Part shown: positions 832 to 33,265 of the stretch, in pieces | Layout: each line of letters starts with the position of its first letter | Position numbering within the stretch: position 1 is the stretch's first letter | NCBI GenBank assembly: GCA_017463185.1 | Contig: JAFTPS010000003.1 | Span: forward strand, 27,113-91,112 | From: Alphaproteobacteria bacterium | GTDB lineage: Bacteria; Pseudomonadota; Alphaproteobacteria; Rs-D84 | Reading direction: 5' to 3' | DNA length: 64,000 bases | Translations under genes and position numbers: made by a program | The notes under the pieces: model-generated | The model's database searches: none | Told to the model about the DNA's origin: nothing | Seen by the model: only the letters and a program-made list of their open reading frames with translations

Positions 832-1611
832 TTATTCATAATAGCAATCGCCGTCGCTTATATCAAAATATCCAGTTTGGTCCTTGGCCGATGTCCCGTC
901 GGGCAGATAGCAATCGGCACTGGTTGTTTTGCTATATCCATTTGTTGTGGCAACGGCTGACGTAATCTCGCCCAGAGCTGAACAAGAAGTGCAATCCAGT
1001 AATGCGTAGTATGTTGATTCTGTTTGCACCAGGCCAGCGGCACTGTAAAAACCTGTGTTGCAGGTTGCCAAAGTTGTACCGTGATAATCGCAGATGCCGT
1101 CGGTGTTGCAACTTTTGTTGCGCCCTCCAAACAAAATTCCGGAATTATTTTGGTCTGCGGTCCAGCCTTCGCTGCCCGAACAAGTGGAACAACATTCAAT
1201 CTGTTCAAAATTTGTGATATTAAATGTTGTGCCTGATGCCTGGTACGGGTCAAAGTCTGTTGATATGTTCATATTACATAGTGTTGAATCCGCAAAAATT
1301 ATTTCCTGACACGGCGTCGTGCTGGTGAAACACAGTATTACACCATATTGAGGCTCGGACATATAATCATAAATGTCAAAAGCCCCACAAATTGGATAAT
1401 CGGTATATGGTGATGTAAAAGCAAGCAAGTCTGAACGGCAAACCGAGTATTCATTACAGCCTATTTTACCCCGATAACCGGAACTGCACATAGTTGTTTC
1501 GGCGCTGGACAATTCAGTGCTGGCACATGTTTTATAAAACATAACCGTTTGGTCCGCGCCCGCCACAAATGGCATGCCCAGGAACCCCGCGATTAGTAAA
1601 TATTTTTTCAT
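832..1611 (-). CDS. secreted cysteine-rich protein (signal peptide MKKYLLIAGFLGMPFVAGA)
   Basis: 259-aa ORF, N-terminal signal peptide, many Cys/Thr/Ser; RBS aaggagg 6 nt upstream; preceded by conserved leader element shared with two other Cys-rich protein genes. Confidence 0.5.
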   Translation of the reverse strand: MKKYLLIAGFLGMPFVAGADQTVMFYKTCASTELSSAETTMCSSGYRGKIGCNEYSVCRSDLLAFTSPYTDYPICGAFDIYDYMSEPQYGVILCFTSTTPCQEIIFADSTLCNMNISTDFDPYQASGTTFNITNFEQIECCSTCSGSEGWTADQNNSGILFGGRNKSCNTDGICDYHGTTLATCNTGFYSAAGLVQTESTYYALLDCTSCSALGEITSAVATTNGYSKTTSADCYLPDGTSAKDQTGYFDISDGDCYYE

Positions 1612-1760
1612 TCTTAAACCTCCTTTTCATTTTTTTGAATGAAAAAACCGTCGCAGAATTTAGACGGTTGGAGGTTCAGAACAATGATAAGATTGTATGG
1701 TGTATTCAGTATATTCCACCATCCTCCAACCATTTGTGGCTGGAAGTTATTTTTATTGCG
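1612..1760 (-). promoter_or_regulatory. conserved structured 5' leader (copy L1) with intrinsic-terminator hairpin upstream of Cys-rich secreted protein gene
   Basis: Sense (minus) strand: helix arm ggttggagg ... ~50 nt with conserved gaatatactgaata ... aacctccaacc, then hairpin ccgtctaaattctgcgacgg + tttttt 25 nt before RBS; same architecture at 27160-27365 and 33266-33470 with compensatory base changes. Confidence 0.45.
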
Positions 1761-2041
1761 AAGTGTTTATCGCAATACTTATCAGAGGTTCTGACACCCC
1801 GAAATAGCAATACGCCATTTCAAATAAAATGGTAGCATTATGGGGTATTAAAGTAAAGGCAAAAAAAACGCCGGGATTCAGATTGACAGCGGAATACAAC
1901 CCTAGTATAATATGCCTAATCCAAACCACCAATTGGATTAGGCATAAAAACACATTTGAAAACCTCAGGTTTCTGGGAGAAAACGACAAAATAAAAACCG
2001 CCGAATGCAAACGGTGGTTTAACTGACAAAAGGGGACGGCT

Positions 2042-2917
2042 ATGAAAAAGGTTGCGATATTGTATATAGCGCTGGGGCGTTATATTGTTTTTTGGAAAGA
2101 TTTTTTTGAATCGTGCCAGGCGAATTTATCCCCTTGTGAAAAGCATTATTTTATATGGACGGATAATACGGATTTTGATTACAGCGACATCCCCAATGTC
2201 ACGGTTATCCCCGCCCAGAAACGCGGCTGGCCGTATGATACACTGTTGCGGTTTGAAATGTTTTTGGGAATGGAAAAAGAATTAAAAAAATTTGATTACA
2301 TATATTTCTTTAATGCGAATTTTCAATTTGTTGCACCGGTGGATTTGGCGGAAATTACCCCGCGCGAATGGCATGACGGCCTGGTCGCGGGCAGTCATCC
2401 GGGACGCCGCGGCGATGTGCTGGCCGGTAATCCGGATTTGTTTGGCTATGAACGCCGTCCAGAATCAACCGCGTATGTCCCATTTGGCAAAGGCAAAGAT
2501 TATGTTTGTGGCGCATTTAATGGCGGAACAAGTGCAGCTTTCCTGACTATGTGTCAGGTGTTGGCGAAAAATGTCCAGATTGATTTGAAAAACGGCATTG
2601 TTGCGCGTGTGGACGATGAAAGTCATCTGAACGCGTATTTGATTGATAAAAAGTATTTATTGTGTGGGCGTGCCTATGGTTTCCCAGAAGGCAAGTTAAA
2701 GCACGTGAATCGTGTTGAAATGCCAATGATAAAGATTATTTCCCGGCACAAGGAAAGTCCAAAATATGGCGGTGTAAAATGGCTGCGTGGTCAGACAGAT
2801 AAAAAGATGCCCAACAATGCGTTTACGCGAAATATTATGCGACCGTTGTGCCACGGGGTCGCGCTGTTTATACCGATAAAAAAATATCGGTCACGGGTGC
2901 GCGGGTATTTTGGGTAA
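2042..2917 (+). CDS. glycosyltransferase family 6 (ABO/alpha-1,3-Gal(NAc)-transferase-like), bacterial NxN variant
   Basis: Strong similarity to ABO transferase blocks: FWKDFFES..., FGYERRPESTAYVPFGKGKDYVCGAFNGGT (cf. FTYERRPQSQAYIP..GGFFGGS), VDDESHLNAYLI (cf. WHDESHLNKYLL); DXD position reads FFNANF (NAN), as in metal-independent bacterial GT6. Confidence 0.75.
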   Translation: MKKVAILYIALGRYIVFWKDFFESCQANLSPCEKHYFIWTDNTDFDYSDIPNVTVIPAQKRGWPYDTLLRFEMFLGMEKELKKFDYIYFFNANFQFVAPVDLAEITPREWHDGLVAGSHPGRRGDVLAGNPDLFGYERRPESTAYVPFGKGKDYVCGAFNGGTSAAFLTMCQVLAKNVQIDLKNGIVARVDDESHLNAYLIDKKYLLCGRAYGFPEGKLKHVNRVEMPMIKIISRHKESPKYGGVKWLRGQTDKKMPNNAFTRNIMRPLCHGVALFIPIKKYRSRVRGYFG

Positions 2918-2957
2918 AGACCTTGACTTTTAATGGTTTTGTACATACCATATAGGT

Positions 2958-3767
2958 ATGACAAATAATAAAATGAATACTTTTTATCAGGATGCGATTA
3001 GAAGTCGCCGTGGCGATGCGACTAATATTCGCGAACCACGAATCCGTGGCTCTCAGCGCAATGTTTTGTTTGCAGATACGCCCGACGGTGCGCGTGTGTT
3101 TAAGTTCAGTTCGCCCGAATTAGTGGTCAAGGACGAAAAAATCAGTAATCAGTATAAAATGGCGGGGATTCCTGTGCCGAATATAACATCGCATCAGTAT
3201 CGTGGTCTGTCGTTTGAGGAATATCCGATAATCCCCGGTCGCACTTTGTACGAGGCTATTGGTGACGGCATCGGCGCCGATGATATTCGTCGCATTTATC
3301 GTCAGATTTTAGATAATTTTGCTAAAATGGCGCGGGTGCGGGCTGGGAGCCTGCCCCATGAAAATATCAATTTGGCGCACTATGTGGCGCGTGAGAATGT
3401 ATCAACGGCGAATAATCGCACGTTGGGCAATGTGATATGGATGCTGGTTTATCTGATGAACCTAGGTGCGGACAAGAATATAGGCCTGTTCCATTTTGAT
3501 ATCACACCCAAAAATGTGATTATATCGGACGACGGGCATTTGGCGGGCTTTATTGACATAGAAACGGTTGGCATTTGCAATAAAAACTTTGCGTTTGGGA
3601 TGATGGCGGCCAAGTATCAGCAACTGGGGTTTGATATAAATGAATTGGTTGATTACTATGAAAATATCACAGGCGACAAACTGAACCGCACACGGATTGC
3701 CACGATAAGCAATCTGAGCAATGCGGGCAAGGCATTTCTGTGGAAAAACGCACAGCGAAAGAGATAA
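2958..3767 (+). CDS. protein-kinase-like fold phosphotransferase (APH/choline-kinase-like)
   Basis: Brenner-type catalytic motif HFDITPKNVIISDDGHLAGFIDIE (HxDxxxxN...D); located in glycan locus next to GT6. Confidence 0.5.
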   Translation: MTNNKMNTFYQDAIRSRRGDATNIREPRIRGSQRNVLFADTPDGARVFKFSSPELVVKDEKISNQYKMAGIPVPNITSHQYRGLSFEEYPIIPGRTLYEAIGDGIGADDIRRIYRQILDNFAKMARVRAGSLPHENINLAHYVARENVSTANNRTLGNVIWMLVYLMNLGADKNIGLFHFDITPKNVIISDDGHLAGFIDIETVGICNKNFAFGMMAAKYQQLGFDINELVDYYENITGDKLNRTRIATISNLSNAGKAFLWKNAQRKR

Positions 3768-3906
3768 AATGTGGGGAATTTTTGTAAAAAAGTCCTTTGC
3801 CACCGATGGGGCAGGAAAAATCCCGCATTGCGGGATTGGTTGTTTTTGCTTAAATGCCATAAGGTCACTTGCTTTTTGTTGGCAAATAATTATAATAGTG
3901 TGCATT

Positions 3907-3983
3907 GCACCCGTGGCTTAACTGGATAGAGCATCGCCCTCCGAAGGCGGGGATTGCGCGTTCGAATCGCGCCGGGTGCGCCA
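3907..3983 (+). tRNA. tRNA-Arg (anticodon CCG)
   Basis: 77 nt cloverleaf: acceptor GCACCCG/CGGGTGC, anticodon stem TCGCC/GGCGG with loop CTCCGAA, T-arm GCGCG-TTCGAAT-CGCGC, discriminator G + encoded CCA. Confidence 0.8.
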
Positions 3984-4016: not shown

Positions 4017-4130
4017 ATCAGACCTTGATTTTTAGGGTGATTTATGGTATAATATTGACCGTGGATGCAGACAGACTGCGTCCGTTTTTTTATTTAAACA
4101 ACTGGTGACATAATGAAAAGGATTTTTTAT

Positions 4131-4628
4131 ATGTCACGACAAATTCAAATACGACGCGGAACAACCAGTGAACATGAAACATTTACCGGTGCAATTGGTG
4201 AAATCACAATGGATACGGATGCCAAGACCCTGCGGGTGCACGACGGGGAAACGGTGGGTGGCGTGCCGTTGGCGCGCGCCGACAGTGTGCCGGATATGAG
4301 TGGTGCGGACTATGTTGTTGCCTGGCAATCGCCAAGTGCAGAAAATAACTATACCTGGTATCGTAAATATAAATCCGGCTGGGTTGAACAAGGGGGATAT
4401 ACAAACAGCAGTACGGTCACCCTGCCCCTGGCTATGGCGGATACGCAATACAATATCCAGATTACCGGTGATGCAAAGTCAACCAATAACAATGTGTACA
4501 TTTTTGGGTGTCAAAGTCGTACGACAACCGGCTTTTCTATGCTGGGGAATGTTGTAAACGGCAGCAGCCAATCGTCAACCGCCAATGGCGCACAACGCTA
4601 TTGGTTTGTGTGTGGGTTTTCCGCATAA
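4131..4628 (+). CDS. phage tail-fibre-like protein with Mtd-N-like N-terminal domain
   Basis: N-terminus MSRQIQIRRGTTSEHETFTGAIGEITMDTDAKTLRVHDGETVGGVPLA closely matches the conserved N-terminal domain of Bordetella phage Mtd-type receptor-binding proteins (..QFRGGTTAQHATFTGAAREITVDTDKNTVVVHDGATAGGFPLA..); RBS aaagga before ATG 4131 (track start 4113 also possible). Confidence 0.5.
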   Translation: MSRQIQIRRGTTSEHETFTGAIGEITMDTDAKTLRVHDGETVGGVPLARADSVPDMSGADYVVAWQSPSAENNYTWYRKYKSGWVEQGGYTNSSTVTLPLAMADTQYNIQITGDAKSTNNNVYIFGCQSRTTTGFSMLGNVVNGSSQSSTANGAQRYWFVCGFSA

Positions 4629-9089: not shown

Positions 9090-10611
<1,522 letters not shown>

Positions 10612-11397: not shown

Positions 11398-13161
11398 TTG
11401 GCAATGAAACAATATATTTTACCTCTTCGTGATTTGGTGGTGCATCCGGGGCTGACTGTGCCGGTGTACATTGATAATCCTGTGTCTGTATCGTGCCTGA
11501 AAGGGGCCGCGGCGGCGGACCGCCGTATTGTCTTGGTGCCACAGCACAGTTGGACCTATCCGACCACGCCCGACGACATTTACAATGTTGGCACGGTTGG
11601 CGACATTATCCAAGTTTTGCACATGCCCGATGGGGCGGTACATGCAATTGTTTGCACAACCGCGGCGGTCACGCTGGGGAATATAGAAGTGACAGATGGC
11701 CTGTTTACGGCGGACGCCACACCAATTGAAATTGCGACCGATGAAACCGCGCCGGAAACAATTGCGTTGCGTGATATGATTGCGGAAAATGTCCAGGCCA
11801 TGTCGTCGGTGCGTAAATTCAAAATGGATAAATTGCGCAGTGTGGTAAATAACTATCCCCTGCCCGCGTTTGTGGATTCTGTGGTTCAAATGATGGACAT
11901 TGATACCGATAATGCATTAAAGATTTTATGCGCGCCGTCATGGCGGGACAAATTGATTCTGTTGTTGGAACAGATTAAATTGATGGGTGAAACCGCTAAA
12001 ATAGAAGATTCTATAAATCGTCGTATTCACCAGCAAATGGAAAACGGCCGACGCGAAGCTATTTTACAGGAAAAAATGCGTGCCCTGCAAAAGGAAATGG
12101 GTGAAGACAGCGAGGAAATGGATTCCGAAAATATTCGCAAGCGGATTGTAAAATCGTCTATGCCGACCGAGGCCAAAGAAAAAGCAATGAGCGAATGGAA
12201 GCGTATGCGGTCGTTGTCGCCTATGTCAAATGAGGGCGGATTATTAAAAACATATTTAGACGAATTGTTGGCTATGCCATGGGGTAAAATGGACACAATT
12301 CCAATTGATTTGAATGTGGCGCGAAATGTTTTAGATTCCGAGCATTCCGGAATGACTGGCGTTAAAGAACGAATTTTGGAACACATTGCCGTTATGAAAA
12401 AAACTGGCGGCAACCAGGGCAGTATTTTATGTTTTGTTGGCGCACCGGGTGTGGGTAAGACTTCGCTGGGTAAATCAATTGCTGCGGCGTTGGGACGCAA
12501 GTATCAGCGAATTTCCCTGGGCGGTATTTCTGACGAGGCGCATTTCCGTGGTCATCGCAAGACCTATATTGGCGCACAGACTGGGCGTATTATGGATGCG
12601 TTAAAGCGTTGCAAAACAAACAATCCCGTGATTGTTCTGGATGAAATTGATAAAATGGGCCGCGATTGGCGTGGCGACCCGGAAAGTGCCCTGTTGGAAA
12701 TTCTGGACCCAGAACAGAACAAGACTTTCCGCGACCATTATTTAGAGGTGGATTTTGACCTGTCCAATGTGTTGTTTATTGCGACTGCAAACAGTCTGAA
12801 TTTATCCAATGCATTAAAGGACCGTATGGAAATTATTGAAATTCCGGGCTATTCAATTGATGATAAGGTTAAAATTGCACGTGAACATCTGATTGCGCGG
12901 GCAGCCCGTGATACTGGGTGGAATCCGGATGATATTGTAATCTTTGACGATGCAATTCGTCATATAATTCAAAACTATACATCCGAACAGGGGGTGCGTG
13001 AATTGCAACGTGAACTGACCGCGATTTTGCGTCGTGCATTGCTGGAAAACGATTGTGCGGATGTACGGACTGAATTTACCCCGGCCAAGATTGATGAATT
13101 GTTGTCGGTGCGTAAATCGGCCGGATTTTCCAAGAAAATTGGCTTTGGGGTACGGTTATGA
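11398..13161 (+). CDS. Lon-like ATPase: Lon N-domain + AAA+ module, no S16 protease domain
   Basis: LPLRDLVVHPGLTVPVYI (Lon N), Walker A GAPGVGKTSLGKSIA, Walker B VIVLDEIDKM, sensor/arginine finger regions align with E. coli Lon 1-585; ORF stops (..KIGFGVRL*) exactly where the protease domain would start and tsaB begins 4 nt earlier. Confidence 0.7.
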   Translation: MAMKQYILPLRDLVVHPGLTVPVYIDNPVSVSCLKGAAAADRRIVLVPQHSWTYPTTPDDIYNVGTVGDIIQVLHMPDGAVHAIVCTTAAVTLGNIEVTDGLFTADATPIEIATDETAPETIALRDMIAENVQAMSSVRKFKMDKLRSVVNNYPLPAFVDSVVQMMDIDTDNALKILCAPSWRDKLILLLEQIKLMGETAKIEDSINRRIHQQMENGRREAILQEKMRALQKEMGEDSEEMDSENIRKRIVKSSMPTEAKEKAMSEWKRMRSLSPMSNEGGLLKTYLDELLAMPWGKMDTIPIDLNVARNVLDSEHSGMTGVKERILEHIAVMKKTGGNQGSILCFVGAPGVGKTSLGKSIAAALGRKYQRISLGGISDEAHFRGHRKTYIGAQTGRIMDALKRCKTNNPVIVLDEIDKMGRDWRGDPESALLEILDPEQNKTFRDHYLEVDFDLSNVLFIATANSLNLSNALKDRMEIIEIPGYSIDDKVKIAREHLIARAARDTGWNPDDIVIFDDAIRHIIQNYTSEQGVRELQRELTAILRRALLENDCADVRTEFTPAKIDELLSVRKSAGFSKKIGFGVRL

Positions 13162-16858: not shown

Positions 16859-16863
16859 AGATT

Positions 16864-16893
16864 AAAAATCCGTCCCCTGGGCGGTTTTTTATT
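16864..16893 (+). terminator. intrinsic terminator after tRNA-Met
   Basis: aaaaatccgtcccctgggcggtttttt. Confidence 0.55.
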
Positions 16894-17026
16894 TATAAAT
16901 CCCGTATAGCCACTTATTTTTCTGTGTATGTTCATAAAAATACATGATTGATAAATATTCATATTATTTTTCCCTTGCGTAGGGTGCGGTAAATTTTCTA
17001 CCATTATTTACAAAAGAGAGGAAGTC

Positions 17027-20000
17027 ATGGAAAAAAAGCGCAGTTTCCTGGGATTTTTGGCAAGTTTATTTTTGGTATTTTTTACCGCCAATGCGTTCGC
17101 GGCGGGCTATTCGTGTCCTACATATAAGTTGTACACATCGTGTAGCGAGAATTATTTCTTGGCTGATACCGATGTGTCTGACAGTGCTACTTCGGCGGGA
17201 AATGCATGTTCGGCCTGTCCTGGAAATTCTACAAACACTGTTTCAACTGCGACATCCTGTACCTGTAAAACGGGGTATAGTGTTGGCGGTGCAACCACAA
17301 CGACTGGTACGGCGTGTTCGGCCAATACATACACCGTTACTTATAACAGTAACAAGCCAAGTGGTGCTTCTGGCACAATTAGTGGCAGCACAGCGAACAG
17401 CACTCATACATATGGCACGGCCAAGGCATTGACAACAAACGGGTACAGTTTGACCGGGTGGACGTTTGCAGGCTGGAATACCAAGGCGGACGGTACAGGT
17501 ACATCTTATGCAAATGGCGCAAGTGTAACGAACCTGACCAGTACTTATAATGGAACGGTCACGCTGTATGCGAAATGGACTGTGAATACATTGACCATAA
17601 ACTATAACACCAGCAGTGCAACCAGTGGTACGCCATCTGTGTCACAACAGACATGTTCTTATGACGGAGCATGTACAGCGGCAACCCAGGGTACTATGGT
17701 TAAAACCAAGATGGTGTTCCTTGGTTGGACCAAGACATCTGGTGGAACAACCGTTGATTATGCGGCGGATGCATCTATCAAGAACATAATCAGCAGTGGT
17801 TCAATAACACTGTATGCAGTGTGGAAAACGCCGACATGTTCTGCGACCAAGGGTACTGCGACGTTAAAGAGTGTAACCAACAACACGCCAGTGTGTACTA
17901 TTACCTGTTCTACTGGGTACACTCAGGGCGGTGGCACGAATGCAACTGGGACGTTTGAAGTAAACGGTTCTGCCGGTGCAACCAGTGCAAGTGGCACATG
18001 TAAAGCGATTACATTTACAGTTGCATACACCAAAGACCCAAGTTCTGCAACGGGTACGGTTCCAAGTAATCAGACATGTACGTATGATGGCACATGTACT
18101 GCGGCGACGAATCCATTCTCTCATACGGGCTATATGTTTAACAAGTGGTCTTGTACCGCCAGCAGTGGCAGTTGCGCCGCCAGCACATATGCATCGGGTG
18201 ATAGTCTGAAAAATGCAACATCTGTTGCAGGTGCGACGATTACTCTGAAATCTACTTGGGATGCGAACACCATTACCCTGAACTGGGCAAATGGCGGACA
18301 TGGTACAGCGCCGACCAGTCCCGCATCGTGTAAGTATGACAGCACATTCACCATGCCGGCCGCGATGACCGCAACGGGTTATACATTTAATAAGTGGTCT
18401 GTGAATGGCAAAACGTTCAATGCGGGTACAACCGGTGTTGCGTGTACCAGTGCCAATCTGGGGGTAAGCAGTGGAGCCGTCACAATTACAGGTACCTGGA
18501 CCGCAAACAACTATTCCATTAGCCTGGACAATGCAAGCGCGACAAATAATGGGACAGCGACCATTTACACCACATATAAAACAAATGTGTATTTGGACGA
18601 CGCGCGCAGCAAGGCTATGACAGCATCCGCGAATGCTATCACAGAACCGACGCGCGCGTACACGGTCACATATGATGGCAATGGTGGTTCGGTGTCCGCA
18701 ACCAGTGCGACGGCAACATATACATTCAATGGTTATTACAATACGTCCAGCAATGGCACACAATACATTAACTCAAACGGGAATATCACATCCGATGGTT
18801 TGAACGCAGCTAAGGATGTGGATGATAATACAACAACCTGGTACGCACAATGGACCAGTAAATCTGTGACATTGCCAACACCGACCAGAACGGGCTATAC
18901 ATTTAAAGGCTGGGCAGAATCCTCAACCGCGACCGGTGGAGATACGGGTTCATATACCCCGACCAAGAATGTCACATTATATGCAATCTGGTCGCAGAAT
19001 ACCTATGCTGTCGCCTATTCCTGTGGTGATGGAGCTGGGACCGCCCCCAGTTCCACGACCGCGACATATGACAACTCATTTACACCGGCGGCTAACACAT
19101 GCACACGCAGTGGATATAACTTTGCCGGATGGACGGTAAGTGGCACAAGTGATACCAAGACCGCAGGTTCGGCATTTACTTGGACATATACTGAGGGCAA
19201 AACATTTACCGCCAAATGGACAGCCGAGGGCGAGGCGGAAATCAACTATGTCACAAATGGTGGCACAATCAATGGTTCGTACATGGCGGCGTGTAATGTT
19301 GAAACAGCAACATTTAGTTTGCCGACAGATGTCACAAAACCGGGTTATACATTTAATGGATGGTACACCGCATCCACTGGTGGGACCAAGGTGACAAGTG
19401 TTGTAAAGGGCACATGCACATCCGCGCTGACATACTATGCACAATGGACCGCATGCGACAGCACAACCGCGGGTGCTTGTAATTGTACCAGCAGTCAATA
19501 TCCAGACAATGGGACATGTACAAATTGTTCGCACAGCTGTGCCAGCGTCACTGGATATACACTGGGTACATATAATGTATGTGAGGCGGAAACGGATTTA
19601 TGGTGTTATCGCAATTGTACAACCACTGATATTCCAAATTCTACCGGTGTGTCTGGGATTGTTACTAAGGGCGGAAAAATTTTATGTGCAGCAACGACGT
19701 GTGCAGATGATTTCTATATATCAGGCAGTGGCTGTCAGTCATGTCCAGAAAATGCGACATGCGGGGGCGAAGCCGAATGGTCATGTGATGAGGGATATAA
19801 AAAGACCGCCAATGGCCTGGGGTGTGAACCAAATACATACACCGTCACATTGAATGCGAATGGTGGTACGGGTGGGACTGCGTCCGTCACGGCAACTTAT
19901 AACAGCCTGTTGCAAACGGCGACTATGCCAGAGCGCGACAACTATAACTTCCTGGGGTACTATGATACGGATGCAACCACGGGTGGCAATCAGTATTATG

Positions 20001-23000
20001 ACGAGAGTGGTAAGCCGGTAAAGGCATGGACCACGGCGGCAAATGGCACATTGTATGCGCGTTGGGAATTGGGTGTATTTCCATGCACCGCGGGCAAAGC
20101 AGCCGACGGAACAACATGTACGCCGGGATATTACTGTCCGGGTGGAGATGTGACCGCGGGCAATGAATCCAGCGAAACCGCAGGATGTGAAATCAAATGT
20201 CCAAGTGCATCGGGCAAAACGATTAGTTCTGTTTCCGGCGCGACACTGAAAACCCAGTGTACAGCCGCGGGGGATGTAGATATTACAAATGAATCCACGA
20301 CAGTTGTGTCGGGGCGTGGTACCGAAACATGTAGTTGGAACGAAAGTACGGACTCATATTCACTCTCTTGCAATATCGTGCCGACATACTGCCAGGGTGG
20401 ATATTACAGACCGGCTGCGAACTCGCCATTCTGTAATGAGGTTGGCTATGGCTATTATCGTGGCGATAGCGAAGCCGTGACAACACGCAATGCGTGTTCG
20501 GCCCTGTCGGGTGCGTCGGGCGCGACAACATCAACCACGACATCCAGTGCGGCAACAGCATGTTTTAATATGTGTTTGCAGACGGTGACCACAGATGGCA
20601 ACGGGGTATTAAATCCGGTCAATGAAAACGAATTTTATAATGCAACGACCAAGACTATTGCGGCCTGCTCTTATACACTAAGTTGTAATACTGGGTATCG
20701 GGCGGCAAGTGATACAACATGCGAACCAGATGTTTTTGCGATTACACTGGACCACAATGGTGGCACGGGCAGCGTGAATACAATATATCTGAAATATAAC
20801 ACCGGATGGTATTCGGACAGCAATGCCACCAGCAAAATTACCAAGGTCACTTTGCCGACCCTGGCGGGCCAGACATGTTCGGGATATTTAAGTGGCAGCA
20901 CCGTTGTGATTGGTTCTACGGGTAATTTGACAACGAATTACACATTATTCTCGGACGACGCCACAATTAAAGCATCGTATGCCGATAATCCGTCAATCTC
21001 ATGTGCGGCGGGAACATATTATGCCGGTACGGGGACATCATGTACCAACTGTCCGGCGGGCAGTTATTGCGCGGGTGTTGAGGCAATTCAAGACACCGGT
21101 ACGGCCAGTGGTATTGCGACCTGTGAGGCGTTGAATGGCACATATACGGCCGCTGTGGATAAAAATGGTAATAAATTGACGGTGATGATTAGTTCGGCGA
21201 CAAAATCCGATGCGGCGGCGGACTGTTATGCGACAAATGTTGCCTATGCACCCGACCAATACACAGCGGGCAGTCAGACTTGTCAGTATGACGCAGGTAC
21301 TAAATCATATACCGCAAATTGCAGTGCGAAAACCGTTATTACCTGTGCGGGTGGTTATGCCCTGGCCAGCGGAACCGCCACAGTTTGCACGATTGTTGAT
21401 TTGGGATATTACAGCCCGGATAAAGAAACCTCTGCAACACGGTGTCCAGAAAATTCGGATACGGGTACACGCGGCACAACCCAGGAAAAGGGGCGCACCA
21501 GTGCCGAGGCCTGTATAATGGATGACCTGTGGTATGAAAATGATACCAGCGGTCAAAGACGGCAGTGTTTTTATTCGGCCGAGTCGGGCAAATATGACCG
21601 AAACTGTCCACAATCAACGATTGTGACCTGTATCGCGGGGTATTATTACGATGGTGTACAAACTGACAATTGCGTGCCGGTTGGGAATGGGTATTGGAGT
21701 CCGGCTCAATCCGAATGCTCGGGCGAATCCGCGCAGCCAACCGTTGCAGGTTGCTCAACCGAACGCAATTATTGTGGCACAGGTATAGATACCAAGGATG
21801 CCGACGGTAATATCACAAATACCGCGTCCAGCATCACATATTGCGTGGGCCTGTGCGAGGCGGGATATTACTGCGTCCCCGGCGAAGATGCACAAAAATG
21901 CCCCGCCGACTATCCAGACTCTCAGCCCGGCGCAACCAGTATTGATGAGTGTTATGTGGAAGCATCATGTTCGTGTATAGAAGATTCTTCTGTGTGTCCA
22001 GATAATGCTAATAGATGCACATATCGGACTTCTACTGTGACGGGGGTTTATTATTATGCAGACCCAGCCACTTGTGTCGCTAATCCAGAAGACCCAGAAA
22101 GCTCATATTGTCAGATTAACTCTTCATACTGCGCCGATGATTTTTATAGTAGATATTATACTATAACGGGTGAAGAGGTGTCTCGCAGTGAAACGAGTCG
22201 TTTTAGTTCAACCTGTGATAGTTGTTCAACGGTTTCTGCAGATTATCCATATGCATATTCTTATGAAAGCTATAAAGGTGTTAATGGGTGTTGGGCTTAC
22301 TGCGACTTTTACTGTGACGACCCAATTTGTCCACTAGACTCTGAAGGATATTGCGAATATGATAAATATATCATTTCCAAAGAAGGTAAGCTGTATTATC
22401 CGGGCGATGGTGAATGTACCGCGGCTTCCTCTTTGCAAGCAACTTGTTCCGTTACGAAAATTGGCTGTAATACAGGATATGAGTTTAATCCGAATGCCGC
22501 TGATTCAGATAGTATGTGCGAGTTGATTGTTGCTAAGGTCACGTTGAAAGTAAATGGTGGGGATGGGACAGATTCTGTGGTGTACCAGAAGTATGCAACA
22601 GGATGGTATTCAGATGAAGACGCGACAAGTTCTGTTTCCAGGCTTACAACACCAACGCGCACAAACTATTCGTTCTTGGGTTATTCCGCGGACGAAGAAG
22701 GAACAAATATTGTCCTGGCGGCGGATGGCATTTTGCCAGAGCCAGAATTGTTCACAGCCGATACGACATTGTATGCACAGTGGTCGCAGAATCTGGTAAC
22801 CTGTGAAGCGGGCAAGTACTATGATAGTGGCGTGCTGACCGAGTGTGTTGCACCATATTACTGCCCAGGTGAAGGAAATGTGGTTGTTGGTGGTACAGGC
22901 TGCCGTGAAACATGTCCAAATGGCGGGACCATTGATGAAGATGGCGCATCCAGCATCAACAGATGCCACAAGATTATCACGGATTCGTCAAAGAATTTCC

Positions 23001-26000
23001 CGAATGGTACGGCGCAATGGGATTGCTATTACACCAGCGGGACCGGCGATAATGCCCTGTACAGTACAAGTTGCACGGTTGTACCAAGAACCTGTAATCC
23101 TGGGTACTATCACGAGGGTAATAATGCTGTCGGATGTACAGTTGTGGAAGATAAATATTACAGTCCCGCCAATAAGTTGGACAAATATCTGTGTGAAGGT
23201 GGTGACGGGTCGGTACTGCCACGTGATAGCCAGGAAAATTGCTATGTATCCTGTGATTTGACCGCGGCGGATGTGCCACACAGCAAAACCGTGACACCCG
23301 ACAGCGAACAGGCCATGTATTCTGGTAGTGCATATGAAACATGTACATATACATTGACCTGTGACCCAGGATATACTGCGGTACCGGGTGCAAATCCACA
23401 ATGTAAGGCAAATGAATATACAATTACATTGGATAAAAACAAGGGCACGGGCAATATTGCGGACAGTGTACAATGCACATTTGACAGTGGGGCATGCGCC
23501 CTGCCCGCGACAAGTTCGCTGGTACGACCGGGATACAATGTAATTGCCAAGTGGTGTAAAAAGGACGACGGCACCGGTGATTGCTATGGCGCGGGGAACA
23601 CGATTACGGACAACATATCGGCAACGGGTACGGATGTGACGCTGTATGCGGTATGGCAACCGGCAGTATTCAAAATCATACTGAGTGCATCGGATGCAAC
23701 GGCAAATGGCGCACAGGGACCAGTGTATCTGAAATATGCAACGGGTTGGTATTCCGATGAATCGGCAAACACCCCGATAACCAGTTTGGGTACAAACCTG
23801 CCCCAAAAGACGGGATATGAATTTGCGGGCTATAAACTGGGCGACATTAGTATCATTGACGCAAATGGCGCATTGCAGACGAATGAAAATGCATTGAGCG
23901 CAACAACAGTGGATGCAACCGCAACGGCGGTGTGGTCGGCGGGCTTTACATCCTGTGCGGCGGGGACATACTATTCCGGAAATGGCAGTGTATGTTTGAC
24001 CTGTACGGAAAATAACTGGTGCCCAGGTGGCGACAAATTCGCAACCGATTCCGGCACGCCGGATGGACTGAATGCGTGTCCGAATGGCGGTTTGTCGGCG
24101 GGTGGCGAAAGCGCAACCAATGTTGGCGTGTGTTATAAGGAACAGTTGCCTTATACATCGGCCAGCACACACGCGACGGGAACCCAGACATGCTATTATG
24201 GTACAGATGATTATAATGCAAACTGTAAAGACATTGTGGTCACGGCATGTGGGGCGGGATACTATTATGTGTCAGGAACCGATTGCTCAGAGGTTGACGT
24301 AGACCATTATAGTGGCGCGGACGATATGAAACGCTATGCGTGTCCAAACGGTGGTGGCACGGGCAGTCTGACAACGGCCAGCGTGATAACTGAATGCTTT
24401 AAGACGGTTGACTTTACATCCGCGTCGGGCAATGGTACTGGAACCCAGGTATGTACATATACCAGTGGCGAAGGTGCGGATGCCAGATACGCAACCGAAT
24501 GTCGCGAACAGTATGTCAGTCATTGTAAGGGCGGTTATTACAAGACAACCGATGATGCGATTGACTGCGACAAGGTGGGCAAGAATAATTACAGCCCAGA
24601 GGGATCTGTAGCACGTGAGAAATGTCCAGATGGCGGGTTGACCGAATCCGAAACAGCGAATGCACCGACATTCTGTTATAAAACGGATACGCCGTATTCC
24701 AGCGAACACGGTCGGGGTATTCAGTTGTGTTATTACAACGCGGAAACAACCGTGTATGATACCGGGTGCAGCACAATCATAATGCATGAATGCGACGCAG
24801 GGTATTATTGGAAAAATGGCGACAAAGACTGTGAACCAGTTGACTATGGATTCTATGGACCAGTTGCAGATGTAAATAACAGCAACCGTCCAACCACACG
24901 CGATATGTGTCCGGATAACGGACTGACCAAAACAGACACCAGTGCGGATATATCAGAATGCTATCGCACGGATGTGGAATGCACGGTCAACAATGGTGTG
25001 GGTGAAGCGACCTGTAATTATGACGCGGATGCGGGCGCATATTCTGCGGAATGCGGCACATGTGCGGTGACGGGTTGTGGTGAAGGCTATTATTCAACCG
25101 ACGGCACAAACTGTGTTGAATGCCCAGCGGGCAGTATCTGCGACGGTAGCGATGACGATGGCGATGGAATCCCAGATGCCAAGACTTGTGCAAGCCTGAC
25201 CGGTGGTACGCATACCAAGTCTGACAGCGGTATAAGCGATGTAAACTATTGCTATACAGACTGTCCGATTGTTGAGAATGCAAACAGTGTGACGGGACGC
25301 GATTACTATGGCGCGACGGACACTTGCAAGATCAATTCCTGCCGGCCGGGGTATAAGTTGCAGAATTTCCAGTGTGTGGCGTGTGCCGAGGGCGAAATTT
25401 GCGATGGCTCGGTCAAAGACGAAGACGGCGACGGGAACCAGGACGAAGAACCTAAGACCTGTGCCGAATTGACCGGCGGCACGCACACAATGTCAGACGC
25501 AAAATCGGATAGCATAAACGACTGTTATCATATGTGCGAGGCATATGAACTGGATGGTGGCGAGGCCGTGCCAGTCAGTGAACGCGCCCAGTATCCAGAT
25601 GACTGCGAATTTGAAGGCATATCCGATACCGGAAATCCGTGCGATATTGTTGATGGACGCTGCGTTGAAACATCGTGCAATTCAAATTTTGAATTGATAA
25701 ACGGGTCGTGCAAGCCATGTAATCGTGAACACGCAATTACATATAAGCCAACGGGGAACTGTGTTGTGGAATCTTGCGCGACGGGGTATCATCCGAATGG
25801 CCAGGCCTGTGAAGATGATGTTGTGTCGTGCAGTGCACCGAATGCAATATCCGCGACGCGGGTATGGAATACCAAAAAGAACGCGTTTGGCGAATGTATT
25901 ATCACCGAATGCGACGACGGTTATCATTTGGCGGCAAATGCATGCCAGGCCGACGAACAACCGTGCGAGGTTGAACATGGTACCGGTATGCGCGAATGGA

Positions 26001-26326
26001 ACCATAAAACAAATACCTGGGGGGCGTGCATTGCCACCAGTTGCGAACCGGGATATACCAGCGACCGTTCTTTGACCAATGAACTGTCCAAACAGTGCGG
26101 ACGCTGCAACAATATGTACAGCGCGTTGGGAGAACTGGCCGCCAGCAGTTATGTAAGCGAATGTGAAATCGCATCGTGTATGTATCAGGGTGAAAAGTAC
26201 ACATTGGAAAACAATGAATGTATTCTGATATGTGATACGCGCAGCGATGAAACTGGCAGCCAAAAATGGAACGCATCGCGTGGCAAGTGTGAACGAACCT
26301 GTGCGGATGGGTATATTGAGTGGTAA
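17027..26326 (+). CDS. giant secreted surface/adhesin-like protein (3099 aa): signal peptide, Listeria-Bacteroides (Flg_new) repeats, ephrin-receptor/GCC2-like Cys modules, EGF-like Cys-rich C-terminus
   Basis: Signal peptide MEKKRSFLGFLASLFLVFFTANAFA; >10 repeats of ..GYTFxGWNTxxDGTGTxYxxGxxV..LYAxW; recurring CxAGxYYxGxGxxCxxCPxGxYCxG modules; DGDG Ca-binding-like stretches; RBS agagaggaag; terminator follows. Confidence 0.8.
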   Translation: MEKKRSFLGFLASLFLVFFTANAFAAGYSCPTYKLYTSCSENYFLADTDVSDSATSAGNACSACPGNSTNTVSTATSCTCKTGYSVGGATTTTGTACSANTYTVTYNSNKPSGASGTISGSTANSTHTYGTAKALTTNGYSLTGWTFAGWNTKADGTGTSYANGASVTNLTSTYNGTVTLYAKWTVNTLTINYNTSSATSGTPSVSQQTCSYDGACTAATQGTMVKTKMVFLGWTKTSGGTTVDYAADASIKNIISSGSITLYAVWKTPTCSATKGTATLKSVTNNTPVCTITCSTGYTQGGGTNATGTFEVNGSAGATSASGTCKAITFTVAYTKDPSSATGTVPSNQTCTYDGTCTAATNPFSHTGYMFNKWSCTASSGSCAASTYASGDSLKNATSVAGATITLKSTWDANTITLNWANGGHGTAPTSPASCKYDSTFTMPAAMTATGYTFNKWSVNGKTFNAGTTGVACTSANLGVSSGAVTITGTWTANNYSISLDNASATNNGTATIYTTYKTNVYLDDARSKAMTASANAITEPTRAYTVTYDGNGGSVSATSATATYTFNGYYNTSSNGTQYINSNGNITSDGLNAAKDVDDNTTTWYAQWTSKSVTLPTPTRTGYTFKGWAESSTATGGDTGSYTPTKNVTLYAIWSQNTYAVAYSCGDGAGTAPSSTTATYDNSFTPAANTCTRSGYNFAGWTVSGTSDTKTAGSAFTWTYTEGKTFTAKWTAEGEAEINYVTNGGTINGSYMAACNVETATFSLPTDVTKPGYTFNGWYTASTGGTKVTSVVKGTCTSALTYYAQWTACDSTTAGACNCTSSQYPDNGTCTNCSHSCASVTGYTLGTYNVCEAETDLWCYRNCTTTDIPNSTGVSGIVTKGGKILCAATTCADDFYISGSGCQSCPENATCGGEAEWSCDEGYKKTANGLGCEPNTYTVTLNANGGTGGTASVTATYNSLLQTATMPERDNYNFLGYYDTDATTGGNQYYDESGKPVKAWTTAANGTLYARWELGVFPCTAGKAADGTTCTPGYYCPGGDVTAGNESSETAGCEIKCPSASGKTISSVSGATLKTQCTAAGDVDITNESTTVVSGRGTETCSWNESTDSYSLSCNIVPTYCQGGYYRPAANSPFCNEVGYGYYRGDSEAVTTRNACSALSGASGATTSTTTSSAATACFNMCLQTVTTDGNGVLNPVNENEFYNATTKTIAACSYTLSCNTGYRAASDTTCEPDVFAITLDHNGGTGSVNTIYLKYNTGWYSDSNATSKITKVTLPTLAGQTCSGYLSGSTVVIGSTGNLTTNYTLFSDDATIKASYADNPSISCAAGTYYAGTGTSCTNCPAGSYCAGVEAIQDTGTASGIATCEALNGTYTAAVDKNGNKLTVMISSATKSDAAADCYATNVAYAPDQYTAGSQTCQYDAGTKSYTANCSAKTVITCAGGYALASGTATVCTIVDLGYYSPDKETSATRCPENSDTGTRGTTQEKGRTSAEACIMDDLWYENDTSGQRRQCFYSAESGKYDRNCPQSTIVTCIAGYYYDGVQTDNCVPVGNGYWSPAQSECSGESAQPTVAGCSTERNYCGTGIDTKDADGNITNTASSITYCVGLCEAGYYCVPGEDAQKCPADYPDSQPGATSIDECYVEASCSCIEDSSVCPDNANRCTYRTSTVTGVYYYADPATCVANPEDPESSYCQINSSYCADDFYSRYYTITGEEVSRSETSRFSSTCDSCSTVSADYPYAYSYESYKGVNGCWAYCDFYCDDPICPLDSEGYCEYDKYIISKEGKLYYPGDGECTAASSLQATCSVTKIGCNTGYEFNPNAADSDSMCELIVAKVTLKVNGGDGTDSVVYQKYATGWYSDEDATSSVSRLTTPTRTNYSFLGYSADEEGTNIVLAADGILPEPELFTADTTLYAQWSQNLVTCEAGKYYDSGVLTECVAPYYCPGEGNVVVGGTGCRETCPNGGTIDEDGASSINRCHKIITDSSKNFPNGTAQWDCYYTSGTGDNALYSTSCTVVPRTCNPGYYHEGNNAVGCTVVEDKYYSPANKLDKYLCEGGDGSVLPRDSQENCYVSCDLTAADVPHSKTVTPDSEQAMYSGSAYETCTYTLTCDPGYTAVPGANPQCKANEYTITLDKNKGTGNIADSVQCTFDSGACALPATSSLVRPGYNVIAKWCKKDDGTGDCYGAGNTITDNISATGTDVTLYAVWQPAVFKIILSASDATANGAQGPVYLKYATGWYSDESANTPITSLGTNLPQKTGYEFAGYKLGDISIIDANGALQTNENALSATTVDATATAVWSAGFTSCAAGTYYSGNGSVCLTCTENNWCPGGDKFATDSGTPDGLNACPNGGLSAGGESATNVGVCYKEQLPYTSASTHATGTQTCYYGTDDYNANCKDIVVTACGAGYYYVSGTDCSEVDVDHYSGADDMKRYACPNGGGTGSLTTASVITECFKTVDFTSASGNGTGTQVCTYTSGEGADARYATECREQYVSHCKGGYYKTTDDAIDCDKVGKNNYSPEGSVAREKCPDGGLTESETANAPTFCYKTDTPYSSEHGRGIQLCYYNAETTVYDTGCSTIIMHECDAGYYWKNGDKDCEPVDYGFYGPVADVNNSNRPTTRDMCPDNGLTKTDTSADISECYRTDVECTVNNGVGEATCNYDADAGAYSAECGTCAVTGCGEGYYSTDGTNCVECPAGSICDGSDDDGDGIPDAKTCASLTGGTHTKSDSGISDVNYCYTDCPIVENANSVTGRDYYGATDTCKINSCRPGYKLQNFQCVACAEGEICDGSVKDEDGDGNQDEEPKTCAELTGGTHTMSDAKSDSINDCYHMCEAYELDGGEAVPVSERAQYPDDCEFEGISDTGNPCDIVDGRCVETSCNSNFELINGSCKPCNREHAITYKPTGNCVVESCATGYHPNGQACEDDVVSCSAPNAISATRVWNTKKNAFGECIITECDDGYHLAANACQADEQPCEVEHGTGMREWNHKTNTWGACIATSCEPGYTSDRSLTNELSKQCGRCNNMYSALGELAASSYVSECEIASCMYQGEKYTLENNECILICDTRSDETGSQKWNASRGKCERTCADGYIEW

Positions 26327-26583: not shown

Positions 26584-27159
26584 TTAATTGCTATAATAGC
26601 AATTACTGGTGAATGTGTATGTGCCGGTAGTGTCGGACATAGATGAATTTGCCGGTATATAGCACGATGTGATGGCGGTACTGCCCGCGGCACTGGTGCC
26701 ATAAACGCCACCAGATGATGGGCAACGGGTACAGGTTGTGCCGTCACCATAATATCCCGCGCGACACTGATATTCACAGGCCGGAATTATCAGTTCATCG
26801 TTGCAACGTATTTGTTGCGTGTTTCCATAATCGGTCCAGGTGTTTTCTGGGCACAGATCTGGACAGGTTGGTGTTATTGGTTCTATTGGCGACAATGTTC
26901 TTGTACAGGTGCCGATTGTATAACTTTCGGTGCTGGATATAGTAATGGTTTCCGTGCTGCGGGTATAACCACTGGCACAGGTGTTGCAGTCCGTGTATGT
27001 GGCGGTGCCACAGTTGATAACGCGGTTAACATCACTGCATTCAGTTGTAGAGCCGCCGGTTGATTCAATAAAACACATGATTATGGTATCTAGGGCCCAT
27101 GCATTATGCGACAGACCAATCGCCCCCAAGACGATTGGGATAAAGATTTTTTGATTCAT
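26584..27159 (-). CDS. secreted cysteine-rich protein
   Basis: 191 aa, signal peptide MNQKIFIPIVLGAIGLSHNAWA, Cys/Thr-rich; RBS aggaga; preceded by conserved leader L2. Confidence 0.5.
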   Translation of the reverse strand: MNQKIFIPIVLGAIGLSHNAWALDTIIMCFIESTGGSTTECSDVNRVINCGTATYTDCNTCASGYTRSTETITISSTESYTIGTCTRTLSPIEPITPTCPDLCPENTWTDYGNTQQIRCNDELIIPACEYQCRAGYYGDGTTCTRCPSSGGVYGTSAAGSTAITSCYIPANSSMSDTTGTYTFTSNCYYSN

Positions 27160-27365
27160 TGTTTTCTATCTCCTGTTTTTTTATTTTTCAAATGAAAAAC
27201 CGCTGAAAAAAATTTTCAGGCGGTCAGGAGGTTAGTAACAATCTAACGAATTGCGTGCTTATTCAATATATTCGCAACCCTCCTGACCAGGGGTCAGGAG
27301 ATATTTCGTCGTAATAATAAAAAACAGCGCGTAAAGCGCGCCATAAGCATATATTCCGACGCGTT
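27160..27365 (-). promoter_or_regulatory. conserved structured 5' leader (copy L2) with terminator hairpin
   Basis: Sense strand: ctcctgacc-cct-ggtcaggagg / gttgcgaatatattgaataag... / aacctcctgacc / ccgcctgaaaatttttttcagcgg+ttttt, 35 nt before start codon; near-identical copy L3 and divergent covarying copy L1. Confidence 0.5.
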
Positions 27366-30112: not shown

Positions 30113-30145
30113 GGTGGGTAAGCAAAAAATTTTAAGGAGTAAAAA

Positions 30146-32041: not shown

Positions 32042-32068
32042 AAAATCCCCGAAAGGGGATTTTTTAAT
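32042..32068 (+). terminator. intrinsic terminator of dnaK
   Basis: aaaaatccccgaaaggggatttttt. Confidence 0.7.
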
Positions 32069-32114
32069 AGTAGCTGTGCAAAGTTCAATTATGGCAGCCA
32101 CTAATAAACAATAA

Positions 32115-32840
32115 CTAATTCCCCATACTGATTGTGGCGAACAAGGCGGTGCGAAATGTGGCGTTGTCCGCAAATTTTGTTGCGCAATTGGTGACACAAT
32201 TTGTATCACAATTTGTGGAAGTTGCAAATGTTGTGGCATATGCCCACTGGGATACGGCTGGCGACATTATTCGGCACCAACAATATAAATTTTCGGTGGC
32301 GGTATCACTTAGTTCAACCGCGAATATACTGTCGCCGACACTGCCGGTGCTGATACCACAATGCGATATACCATTGACCGTGGTGTTGCCCGTTTGTCCA
32401 GACCAATTTATTGTGTTTATAGATGGGGTAATTTTTGTTGTTGTGGCGTCCGGGTCAAGCACACCACACAATTTTAATTCGCTTGTGTGATATGTTGTAT
32501 TATTGTGTTTTATATGAATTGTATCCGTTGCCGTTCCCGCCACCAGATTTGCAAAACATTCTGTATCACCCAGTTTTATGTGTATTGATGGCGTTGTGTA
32601 TTGTTCCCGATAAAGTGATGTTGCGGTGTCTTGGCTTGTGCGTATTACCGTTGCACCAGCGGAACATGCCAAATCCGGCGAGTTTTCCGACGATACAACC
32701 CCCAGCGTTTGATGTGTACATATTGGCGACAGTTCAACCGCAGCATTTCGCGTGATTGCAATTGTCCCAGTTGGACAGATGGCGGCACGCACACCGTCAC
32801 AACAACACAGAACTATTAAAAAACTTAGCGTGCGATACAT
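32115..32840 (-). CDS. secreted cysteine-rich protein
   Basis: 241 aa, signal peptide MYRTLSFLIVLCCCDGVRA; 1-nt overlap with upstream paralog; Cys/Thr-rich. Confidence 0.5.
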   Translation of the reverse strand: MYRTLSFLIVLCCCDGVRAAICPTGTIAITRNAAVELSPICTHQTLGVVSSENSPDLACSAGATVIRTSQDTATSLYREQYTTPSIHIKLGDTECFANLVAGTATDTIHIKHNNTTYHTSELKLCGVLDPDATTTKITPSINTINWSGQTGNTTVNGISHCGISTGSVGDSIFAVELSDTATENLYCWCRIMSPAVSQWAYATTFATSTNCDTNCVTNCATKFADNATFRTALFATISMGN

Positions 32841-33265
32841 TATTCCAACAGGTTATTTAACATTGTTTTGCGAAAAGTTTGGTCCATATCGTTATCAAAT
32901 ATCATTCCGTTGCGACAACCGCGGGCGCAATTTTTTACACACATATTTGCGGACGTGTATGTATAGCGTGCAACCCATTTTGATATTGCTGGCACGGTCA
33001 TTTTACACCAGCAATACAGATTTTTACTGGTTGTACCACTGGTGCTGATATTAGTTGTACTGTCCGTATCGGCGGTGCCGGATGTTGATGCGCATCGGCC
33101 AACTATGTTGACGGTTGTGCCGTCGCAGTCAACGGTACAATCGGATGTACTATAACAATCATCGCTGGTAGTGCATACCGTGGACGCGGCCAATTTTATA
33201 CACTGGGTCAGGGCATGAACATTTGTGCAAAAAAATAAAATTACTGTGAATAAAAAAATTCTCAT
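32840..33265 (-). CDS. secreted cysteine-rich protein
   Basis: Start MRIFLFTVILFFCTNVHA at 33265 (RBS aagggat) preferred over track start 33301 which lies inside the leader; Cys-rich. Confidence 0.45.
   Translation of the reverse strand: MRIFLFTVILFFCTNVHALTQCIKLAASTVCTTSDDCYSTSDCTVDCDGTTVNIVGRCASTSGTADTDSTTNISTSGTTSKNLYCWCKMTVPAISKWVARYTYTSANMCVKNCARGCRNGMIFDNDMDQTFRKTMLNNLLE

Follow-up and report, generated by a model that had tools for sequence, protein, structure and literature searches.

The 64,000-nucleotide (nt) stretch of contig JAFTPS010000003.1 analyzed here, referred to as the window, comes from an uncultured gut alphaproteobacterium and carries four genes (A, B, C and D) whose products are small, secreted and rich in cysteine. 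The organism shares the families of these proteins with metagenome-assembled genomes (MAGs) of Candidatus Enterousia and the order Rs-D84. Judged by sequence comparison, the four proteins represent two unrelated uncharacterised families, A/B and C/D. A, B and the operon formed by D and C are each preceded by a common leader RNA, in which two mutually exclusive helices are supported beside an intrinsic terminator and the Shine-Dalgarno sequence (SD). With moderate confidence we regard A to D together with this leader as a repertoire of secreted or surface binding modules, disulfide-stabilised and leader-gated, for the interaction with a partner or host.

Relations among the four proteins

The four minus-strand open reading frames (ORFs; Table 1) of a preliminary description of this DNA were confirmed by an ORF check, and its signal peptides could be read from the sequence of all four proteins. 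They are of the Sec type: an n-region with K/R is followed by a hydrophobic core and a cleavage site resembling AxA. Cleavage is predicted, likewise from the sequence, between MKKYLLIAGFLGMPFVAGA and DQT in A, ...LGAIGLSHNAWA and LDT in B, ...LIVLCCCDGVRA and A in C, and MRIFLFTVILFFCTNVHA and LTQ in D. A to D have no Pfam or NCBIfam match to type IX secretion system C-terminal (T9SS CTD), PEP-CTERM, LPXTG, GlyGly-CTERM or autotransporter sorting domains, and no hydrophobic segment at the C-terminus of their sequences. The ATG at 33265 is taken as the start of D, because the alternative TTG at 33301 falls within the leader RNA. The stop codon of D and the start codon of C overlap by one base, so that C is translationally coupled to D. 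ORF 362-832 (-) resembles a gene coupled to A, whose stop codon it abuts, but was dismissed as an artefact antisense to the glycosyltransferase gene (98-802, +). At 59748-60065 (-) a fifth ORF encodes a small secreted protein containing Cys, with 105 amino acids (aa), 6 Cys and a signal peptide; it has neither the leader nor a family match.

The Cys content, initially given as 8-12%, was overstated; it was measured as 6.9% in A, 7.9% in B, 5.8% in C and 8.5% in D (6.0% in the giant protein of Table 1), but the enrichment over the background of ~2.5%, the mean of window ORFs of at least 250 aa, is real. The motifs named as recurring are likewise not shared by all four proteins: CxxC occurs twice in A, twice in B and in neither C nor D, DCTSC is confined to A, and CNTG[YF] to A and the giant.

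The preliminary description had considered the four proteins a single paralogous family. In an all-against-all BLASTP comparison C matched D (E = 3e-12, 37% identity over 68 aa) and A matched B weakly (E = 1e-3), and there was no match between the A/B pair and the C/D pair. A profile hidden Markov model (HMM) of the B family, built from B and 120 homologues, matched A via its C-terminal module (E ~2e-8) and left C and D at background, and the C-terminal HMM of the same family detected A at E = 1.7e-8 among 398 window ORFs. The D-family HMM matched C (E = 3e-33) and D (E = 4e-45); it had no other match in the window, the giant included. Profile-profile alignment with hhalign of a 121-sequence A/B profile with a 50-sequence D profile aligned the signal peptides alone. 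Relationship beyond composition was found within either pair; between A/B and C/D nothing was found beyond composition and the signal peptide. One family of common descent, shared with the Cys modules of the giant, would account for the Thr/Ser/Gly/Cys-rich composition, the signal peptides and the leader common to all four, and A and B do relate to the giant (see below). However, neither BLASTP nor either family HMM gave an A/B-to-C/D match above background, profile-profile alignment reached only the signal peptide, and the D-domain HMM found nothing in the giant, which makes a single family very improbable and largely refutes it at the level of the sequence.

The A/B family and its C-terminal module

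A and B share a C-terminal module of ~60 aa with the pattern C-x-R-C-P-S-S-G-G...C-Y-I-P...C-Y-Y, which in A takes the form CNTGFY...CTSC...CYLPDGTSAKDQTGYFDISDGDCYYE. The N-terminal ~175 aa of A have no homologues. Since a k-mer homology search with A returned only the self-match among 5.8 billion proteins, its membership in the family rests on the B-family HMM. For B, 120 homologues of ~160-290 aa were found, all of them unnamed or annotated as "hypothetical" and, where the source is named, derived from gut Alphaproteobacteria MAGs. Many align only across the last third of B, with far less conserved N-terminal halves, and the strongly conserved last ~60 residues end the protein. The consensus of this module reads C-A-A-G-Y-Y-G...C-T-R-C-P-S-S-G-G-V-Y-G-T-S-A-A-G-S-T-A-I-T-S-C-Y-I-P-S-G-T-S- and continues with x-S-D-x-T-G-x-Y-T-Y-T-x-N-C-Y-Y-S-N.

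Although A and B themselves lack a Pfam match at E <= 1, 13 of the 121 family members matched PF07699 (Ephrin_rec_like, formerly GCC2_GCC3) at E <= 0.1 (best 8.7e-11), two B-family members carry a precomputed PF07699 annotation, and a few weakly match TNFR_ELAPOR1. By these matches the A/B module appears to be a divergent module of the Ephrin_rec_like/GCC2_GCC3 type. An AlphaFold2 (AF2) model of B (pLDDT, the predicted local distance difference test score, of 88) is all-beta and forms a disulfide-type ladder of beta-hairpins, with R-spondin furin-like repeats, TNFR cysteine-rich domains (CRDs) and the EphA2 CRD as the closest folds, all of them non-significant. A sequence-profile search of the PDB with the A/B module gave nothing below E = 0.2.

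A 10-sequence alignment of the module, searched against 185,579 species genomes, yielded 70 loci. With two exceptions, these belong to uncultured Alphaproteobacteria/Proteobacteria or "Rickettsiales" MAGs and Candidatus Enterousia, and their host sources include roe deer, goat, chicken, mouse, human and other gut samples. The exceptions are a weak partial match in Streptomyces and a contig labelled Bacteroides fragilis (CAVGNU010000010.1, locus L059), which carries a B-family gene with its leader; here a binning contaminant of alphaproteobacterial origin is more probable than horizontal transfer.

At least 17 distinct B-type paralogues were present in one genome. Within genomes, protein identity was 57-68% in the C-terminal module and 31-34% in the N-terminal part, and third positions of conserved four-fold codons were 37-43% identical in the module and 31-42% identical in the variable part. 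Because four-fold sites have diverged despite the conserved protein, the paralogues are old, and it is selection on the protein, not recent gene conversion, that has preserved the module. This divergence bears directly on the idea that the genes are cassettes for recombination-based antigenic variation, with leader and C-terminal module serving as homology arms round a variable centre. The order of conserved 5' leader, variable N-terminal coding part and conserved 3' module, present in many copies per small genome, would suit such cassettes. We nevertheless consider them highly improbable, given that the saturation of synonymous sites in module and variable part points to purifying selection and not to recent gene conversion, that the copies are not silent, each being a full gene equipped with a promoter, leader and SD of its own, and that RNA structure accounts for the conservation of the leader.

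Relation to the giant protein

The giant combines a signal peptide with 10 Flg_new (Listeria-Bacteroides, PF09479) repeats (E = 4.4e-49; TIGR02543, E = 2.3e-22) and 13 Cys-rich units starting with C-x-[AG]-G-Y-Y (aa ~1031-2750, nt ~20117-25260). Full-length and C-terminal B-family HMMs did not match it under default bias correction. With the null2 correction off, the A/B module HMM gave every unit of the giant 13-25 bits, compared to 4-8 ± 3 bits for composition-preserving shuffles, and for each of the 13 units at most 2 of 200 shuffles attained the real score; tiles of C and D scored at the level of shuffles in the same test. Aligned by hhalign, the B module and eight units of the giant reached a probability of 94.5% (E = 7e-8) across 41 columns (C-P-x-G-G...I-T-x-C-Y...G-x-G-T...C-Y-Y), which exclude the C-x-x-G-Y-Y motif used for picking the units. 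With moderate confidence the A/B module and the repeat unit of the giant can be regarded as homologous, beyond composition alone. The link to the Cys modules of the giant that had been proposed for all four proteins is thus retained for A and B, on the strength of the hhalign result and the shuffle controls, and dropped for C and D, for which the D-domain HMM finds nothing there.

The C/D domain

C and D share a domain of ~115 aa characterized by N-x-Y-C-W-C...P-x-x-S-x-W, with the longer consensus K-C-V-x-L...C...D-W...C...V-x-G-I-x-x-C-S-S...N-x-Y-C-W-C-K-M-x-S-P-A-V-S-x-W-V...C...C-A-x-x-C...F-R. A word-based search with C returned two relatives only; an exhaustive HMMER profile search retrieved 947 cluster representatives at E <= 1e-3, 285 of them at E <= 1e-10. 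Most are D-like proteins of 135-150 aa consisting of a signal peptide and one domain, ~20 resemble C in having 240-250 aa and an additional domain at the N-terminus, and within large proteins the domain occurs 2-5 times, as in a 4750-aa protein with five C/D domains, six Flg_new repeats and a C-terminal endonuclease I domain. None of 50 scanned family members attains any Pfam family, and a PDB sequence-profile search with the domain found nothing below E = 0.2. The AF2 model of C, based on 4 sequences, is poor (pLDDT 42) and hints at a four-stranded sheet with two helices in the domain region. In two other assemblies the leader and the D-C pair also adjoin the phosphofructokinase gene, with identities of 84% and 54% in C.

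Occurrence of the leader RNA and its putative regulon

The shared leader RNA of the preliminary description was borne out, as a covariance model matches upstream of A, B and D (Table 1) and C is coupled to D. The upstream regions of these three genes have a mean column identity of 70%, and across a 32-nt block those of B and D are identical except for one base at the degenerate (Y) position of the pattern. The window contains the core motif GAATATAYTGAATA three times (0.08 expected), and 23 of the 70 foreign loci have it as well. In the window and these loci together, the covariance model built from 27 copies gave 76 matches. The first ORF downstream is a B-family gene in at least 54 and a D-family gene in 2 of them; seven precede other small ORFs (90-118 aa) with a signal peptide, six of which are Cys-rich, and a few precede small non-secreted proteins, XRE-like helix-turn-helix (HTH) proteins among them. 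At one locus of another genome (L024:6471-7935) three leaders stand in tandem, one of them before an XRE-like HTH gene directly upstream of a leader with a D-family gene, and a second XRE-like gene with a leader is found at L018:4447-4576 (-). A regulator may belong to the leader regulon itself. Because both protein families have members behind this leader in other genomes too, the earlier suggestion of a co-regulated secreted repertoire is well founded. The gene for the giant does not have the leader, as the covariance model gave no match in 16859-17026.

No Rfam family matched the leader when the whole window was scanned at the gathering score, and a permissive scan of the B leader gave DUF3800-VI as the best hit, with 18.7 bits against a cut-off of 35 (E = 0.3). 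A promoter-like site (TTGCCA-17-TAGAAT) is located at 33517-33545, upstream of the leader of D and C. The leaders of B and D have a second, upstream terminator-like hairpin (27324-27344 and 33430-33446, respectively), GC-rich, followed by a U-run and flanked by CGUCG...CGACG, which the leader of A lacks. It is preceded by a conserved 5' domain (GGGGUGU..GAAACC), the 5' sequence extending to ~27420 in B and ~33510 in D, and may represent a tandem attenuator or a separate small RNA. A weak leader-like element at 39763-39922 keeps the S1/S2/S3-terminator layout described below with a different P2, and was not recovered by covariance model R2 at E <= 0.001. Its membership in the leader family is uncertain, and the 177-aa ORF that follows it (39221-39754, -) has no Pfam or PHROG match. 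This divergent element suggests a wider use of the switch design within the genome.

Structure of the leader and proposed switch

The leader core comprises ~140 nt, and the structured leader found with most gene copies examined measures ~140-250 nt. In 5' to 3' direction it consists of S1 (CUCCUGACC, the 5' strand), S2 (GGUCAGGAGG, an SD-like middle strand), the hairpins P2 and P3, S3 (CCUCCUGACC, an anti-SD-like 3' strand sharing 3-4 nt with the 5' arm of the terminator stem), the terminator stem with its U-tract, an A-rich spacer, the SD (CAGGAG) and the start codon. The loop of P2, GAAUAUAUUGAAUAA, is conserved in most copies. A reading of the conserved P2 loop region as a leader peptide was rejected, since indels between copies break the frame.

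S1, S2 and S3 co-vary among copies, which are of CUGACC, CAACC, CCGGCC and CCCGAC types. In the model-based alignment S2:S3 is 98% paired, with both sides changed in seven of nine pairs, and S1:S2 is 95% paired, with both sides changed in five of six pairs; P2 and P3 are 97-100% paired and nearly all of their pairs are compensatory. None of 500 shuffles attained the observed covariation score, and sliding the partners lowered pairing to 33-57%. The alignments were fitted to the structures under test and are in this respect somewhat favourable, but the concerted changes are plain in the raw sequences as well. Cognate duplexes are more stable than cross-copy ones for S1:S2 (-14.7 vs -9.8 kcal/mol), S2:S3 (-20.2 vs -14.0) and S3:SD (-9.7 vs -7.7). 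The 271-nt B leader folds with z = -6.8, and in its minimum-energy fold S1 and S2 form their hairpin, the terminator is present and S3 pairs with the SD. Two mutually exclusive helices with covariation next to a terminator and an SD make the leader a putative member of the attenuation/riboswitch-type class.

In the proposed OFF state, the S1:S2 hairpin would leave S3 free, so that the adjacent terminator could form and S3 would mask the SD. In the ON state, an S2:S3 helix would close P2 and P3 into a three-way junction and leave the SD free. The choice between these states would be made by some signal, possibly read by the P2 loop.

The many copies per genome and the terminator-like hairpins inside them could also be those of a dispersed repeat, similar to miniature inverted-repeat transposable elements (MITE) or repetitive extragenic palindromes (REP), or of terminators of upstream genes, in which case co-regulation would be illusory. 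The chance of this is very slight, as most copies are oriented like the downstream gene and end ~20-40 nt before its SD and start codon, pairing is kept through compensatory changes in four helices while the sequence diverges, the SD varies together with the three complementary segments, and copies are kept at orthologous positions across genomes with 54-84% protein identity.

Possible function and significance

Rs-D84/Enterousia genomes measure 0.7-1.6 Mb, lack a tricarboxylic acid cycle and respiration, and are predicted to belong to obligate symbionts or parasites with metabolites drawn from other cells (PMC12306168). The reading as a binding repertoire is favoured because such a partner-dependent lineage has retained numerous old paralogues in which variable heads are joined to a conserved module, because the same modules build giant adhesin-like proteins, and because dozens of these genes share one structured leader. 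A to D would be exported through Sec, stabilised by disulfides and built from two unrelated modules. In A and B, a variable N-terminal part would sit on the conserved C-terminal beta-hairpin module, which would also be the repeat unit of the organism's giant and may act as a common docking or stalk element. The A, B and D-C units would constitute a leader-gated regulon, most likely for contact with the surface of a partner or host.

Small, secreted, Cys-rich proteins diversified into many paralogues could also be bacteriocin- or defensin-like antimicrobial or toxin peptides directed against competitors, with the leader as an induction switch. D weakly matches the AtDEF-like family PF25052 (E = 0.02), and among the 50 D-family members one each matches the defensin-like families PF25052 and PF10868 (E >= 0.02). 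The match of D is below threshold, though (15.6 bits, cut-off 25), and none of the copies is adjoined by immunity, ABC-export or processing genes, the neighbours being Obg, Lon, DnaK, phosphofructokinase and oxidoreductases. In addition, the proteins have 140-260 aa and ordinary Sec signal peptides instead of bacteriocin leaders, and the same modules are embedded in giant adhesin-like proteins. We consider a toxin function unlikely and retain the binding repertoire as the preferred reading.

A bolder extension of this repertoire, which we put forward as speculative and on balance doubtful, is that the leader constitutes a new riboswitch-like RNA class of reduced-genome gut Alphaproteobacteria (Rs-D84/Enterousia-like), and that it commands a regulon of eukaryote-like (Ephrin_rec_like) and novel-fold Cys-rich secreted proteins which form a variable outer coat or attachment apparatus to a partner cell. 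If true, this would be a bacterial analogue of the variant surface-protein repertoires of protozoa, the partner being host epithelium, a protist or another microbe, and through a three-strand switch that mimics the SD, dozens of genes would respond to one integrated signal.

All homologues of these proteins are unannotated, and none of the papers retrieved by full-text searches on Enterousia, Rs-D84 and bacterial GCC2_GCC3 deals with the proteins or the leader in its title or abstract. The parts are of known kinds, Cys-rich extracellular repeats and terminator- or SD-based leaders. Three things appear to be undescribed: the leader RNA, the C/D domain and the branch of the Ephrin_rec_like class formed by small bacterial proteins. 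Bacteria of the Rs-D84/Enterousia type are widespread in the gut. The A/B-family genes are prime candidates for the machinery of their contact with a partner, because one genome holds at least 17 of them and most examined copies have the structured leader. The analysis also delimits two uncharacterised modules, a putative bacterial branch of Ephrin_rec_like and a C/D domain without a Pfam or PDB relative despite its 947 representatives, and adds a well-supported candidate cis-regulatory RNA absent from Rfam, whose cleanly defined regulon makes its signal experimentally approachable.

Genomic setting and other loci of the window

The window has a GC content of ~43% and carries a two-piece alphaproteobacterial tmRNA (RF01849, 161.8 bits). 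In the source MAG, A (IJX89_00385), B (IJX89_00490) and C (IJX89_00515) are annotated as hypothetical proteins. The four ORFs are flanked by genes for glycosyltransferases, Obg, rubrerythrin, a Lon-like ATPase, a TsaB-like protein, a PIF1-type helicase, an HI0933-like oxidoreductase, an alpha/beta hydrolase, DnaK and phosphofructokinase. Because these are ordinary chromosomal genes, the four genes lie outside any island, prophage or secretion-system cluster. No PHROG family matched A to D at E <= 0.01, and among predicted viral structures (BFVD) the best match had an E of only 0.27.

Table 1. Positions of the genes and leader elements within the window
Feature	Position	Strand	Description
Gene A	832..1611	-	259 aa, secreted, Cys-rich (18 Cys); divergent B-family member via C-terminal module
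Leader of A	1626..1767	-	Covariance model 91.6 bits, E = 5e-18; CCAACC/GGUUGG variant; terminator, then SD
Giant gene	17027..26326	+	3099 aa, secreted; Flg_new repeats and Cys-rich units
Gene B	26584..27159	-	191 aa, secreted, Cys-rich (15 Cys); type member here of a large family
Leader core of B	27178..27321	-	124 bits; S1, S2, P2, P3, S3, terminator
Gene C	32115..32840	-	241 aa, secreted; extra N-terminal domain and C/D domain (aa ~119-238); second gene of D-C operon
Gene D	32840..33265	-	141 aa, secreted; signal peptide and single C/D domain
Leader core of D-C operon	33284..33423	-	118.5 bits
Weak leader-like element	39763..39922	-	25.6 bits, E = 0.009; upstream of non-secreted 177-aa ORF

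Several other loci were noted. A Slam (surface lipoprotein assembly modifier, PF04575) gene follows the gene for a 570-aa protein that lacks a Pfam match and has a lipobox of the classical type, LALAAC-GGSGGGS (41752-43092 and 43096-44808, both -), and the two likely form a Slam-dependent surface lipoprotein pair in this gut alphaproteobacterium. A compact type II CRISPR-Cas locus at 48319-52208 (-) encodes a 973-aa Cas9-like protein with HNH and RuvC domains as well as Cas1. Between the Slam and CRISPR loci, genes for a HipA-like kinase (40070-41221, -), Fic/DOC (45909-46967, +) and Hypoth_Ymh (45133-45810, +) may represent a defence or toxin island. Beside the tRNA-Arg at 3907-3983, a stand-alone 171-aa ORF (4113-4628, +) contains a phage tail-fibre-type Mtd_N (major tropism determinant N-terminal) domain. 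The Lon-like protein of 587 aa (11398-13161, +), followed by the TsaB-like ORF, has substrate-binding, AAA and lid domains, and no Lon protease domain was detected in it.

Comparison with known systems

The variant-specific surface proteins (VSPs) of Giardia (PF03302), weakly matched by 3 of 121 B-family members (best E = 0.0016), are likewise multigene Cys-rich and Thr/Ser/Gly-rich extracellular families with a variable N-terminal and a conserved C-terminal part. In contrast to these, the A/B proteins belong to a bacterium, have neither a C-terminal transmembrane helix nor the CRGKA tail and end in ...NCYYSN or ...DCYYE. CxxC is sparse (2 in B, none in C and D), and each gene has its own leader, with no evidence for mutually exclusive expression.

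The Ephrin_rec_like domain, a member of the furin-like/TNFR Cys-rich class, is known mainly from eukaryotic extracellular proteins. The A/B module resembles it in the pattern C-x2-C-P-x-G ... G-x-T/S ... C-Y. It differs in that the small secreted proteins of these bacteria carry just one copy, at their extreme C-terminus, and in its extra conserved tail (...S-D-x-T-G-x-Y-T-Y-T-x-N-C-Y-Y-S-N). Both small-protein modules recur as repeat units in giant surface proteins of the Flg_new kind, the A/B module in the giant of the window and the C/D domain in protein P0136; the C/D domain is also repeated in the giant P0208 (Pfam content was read for P0136). Unlike these giants, A to D are stand-alone single-module proteins without Flg_new, placed under a leader that is absent from the giant gene.

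With riboswitch or attenuator platforms and SD-sequestering leaders, the RNA shares mutually exclusive helices with covariation, a U-tract terminator just 5' of the SD and an anti-SD-like segment able to pair with it. It differs from them in having no Rfam family match, in an overlap of only 3-4 nt between S3 and the terminator stem, and in the unusual three-way complementarity of S1, S2 and S3 with an SD-mimicking middle strand.

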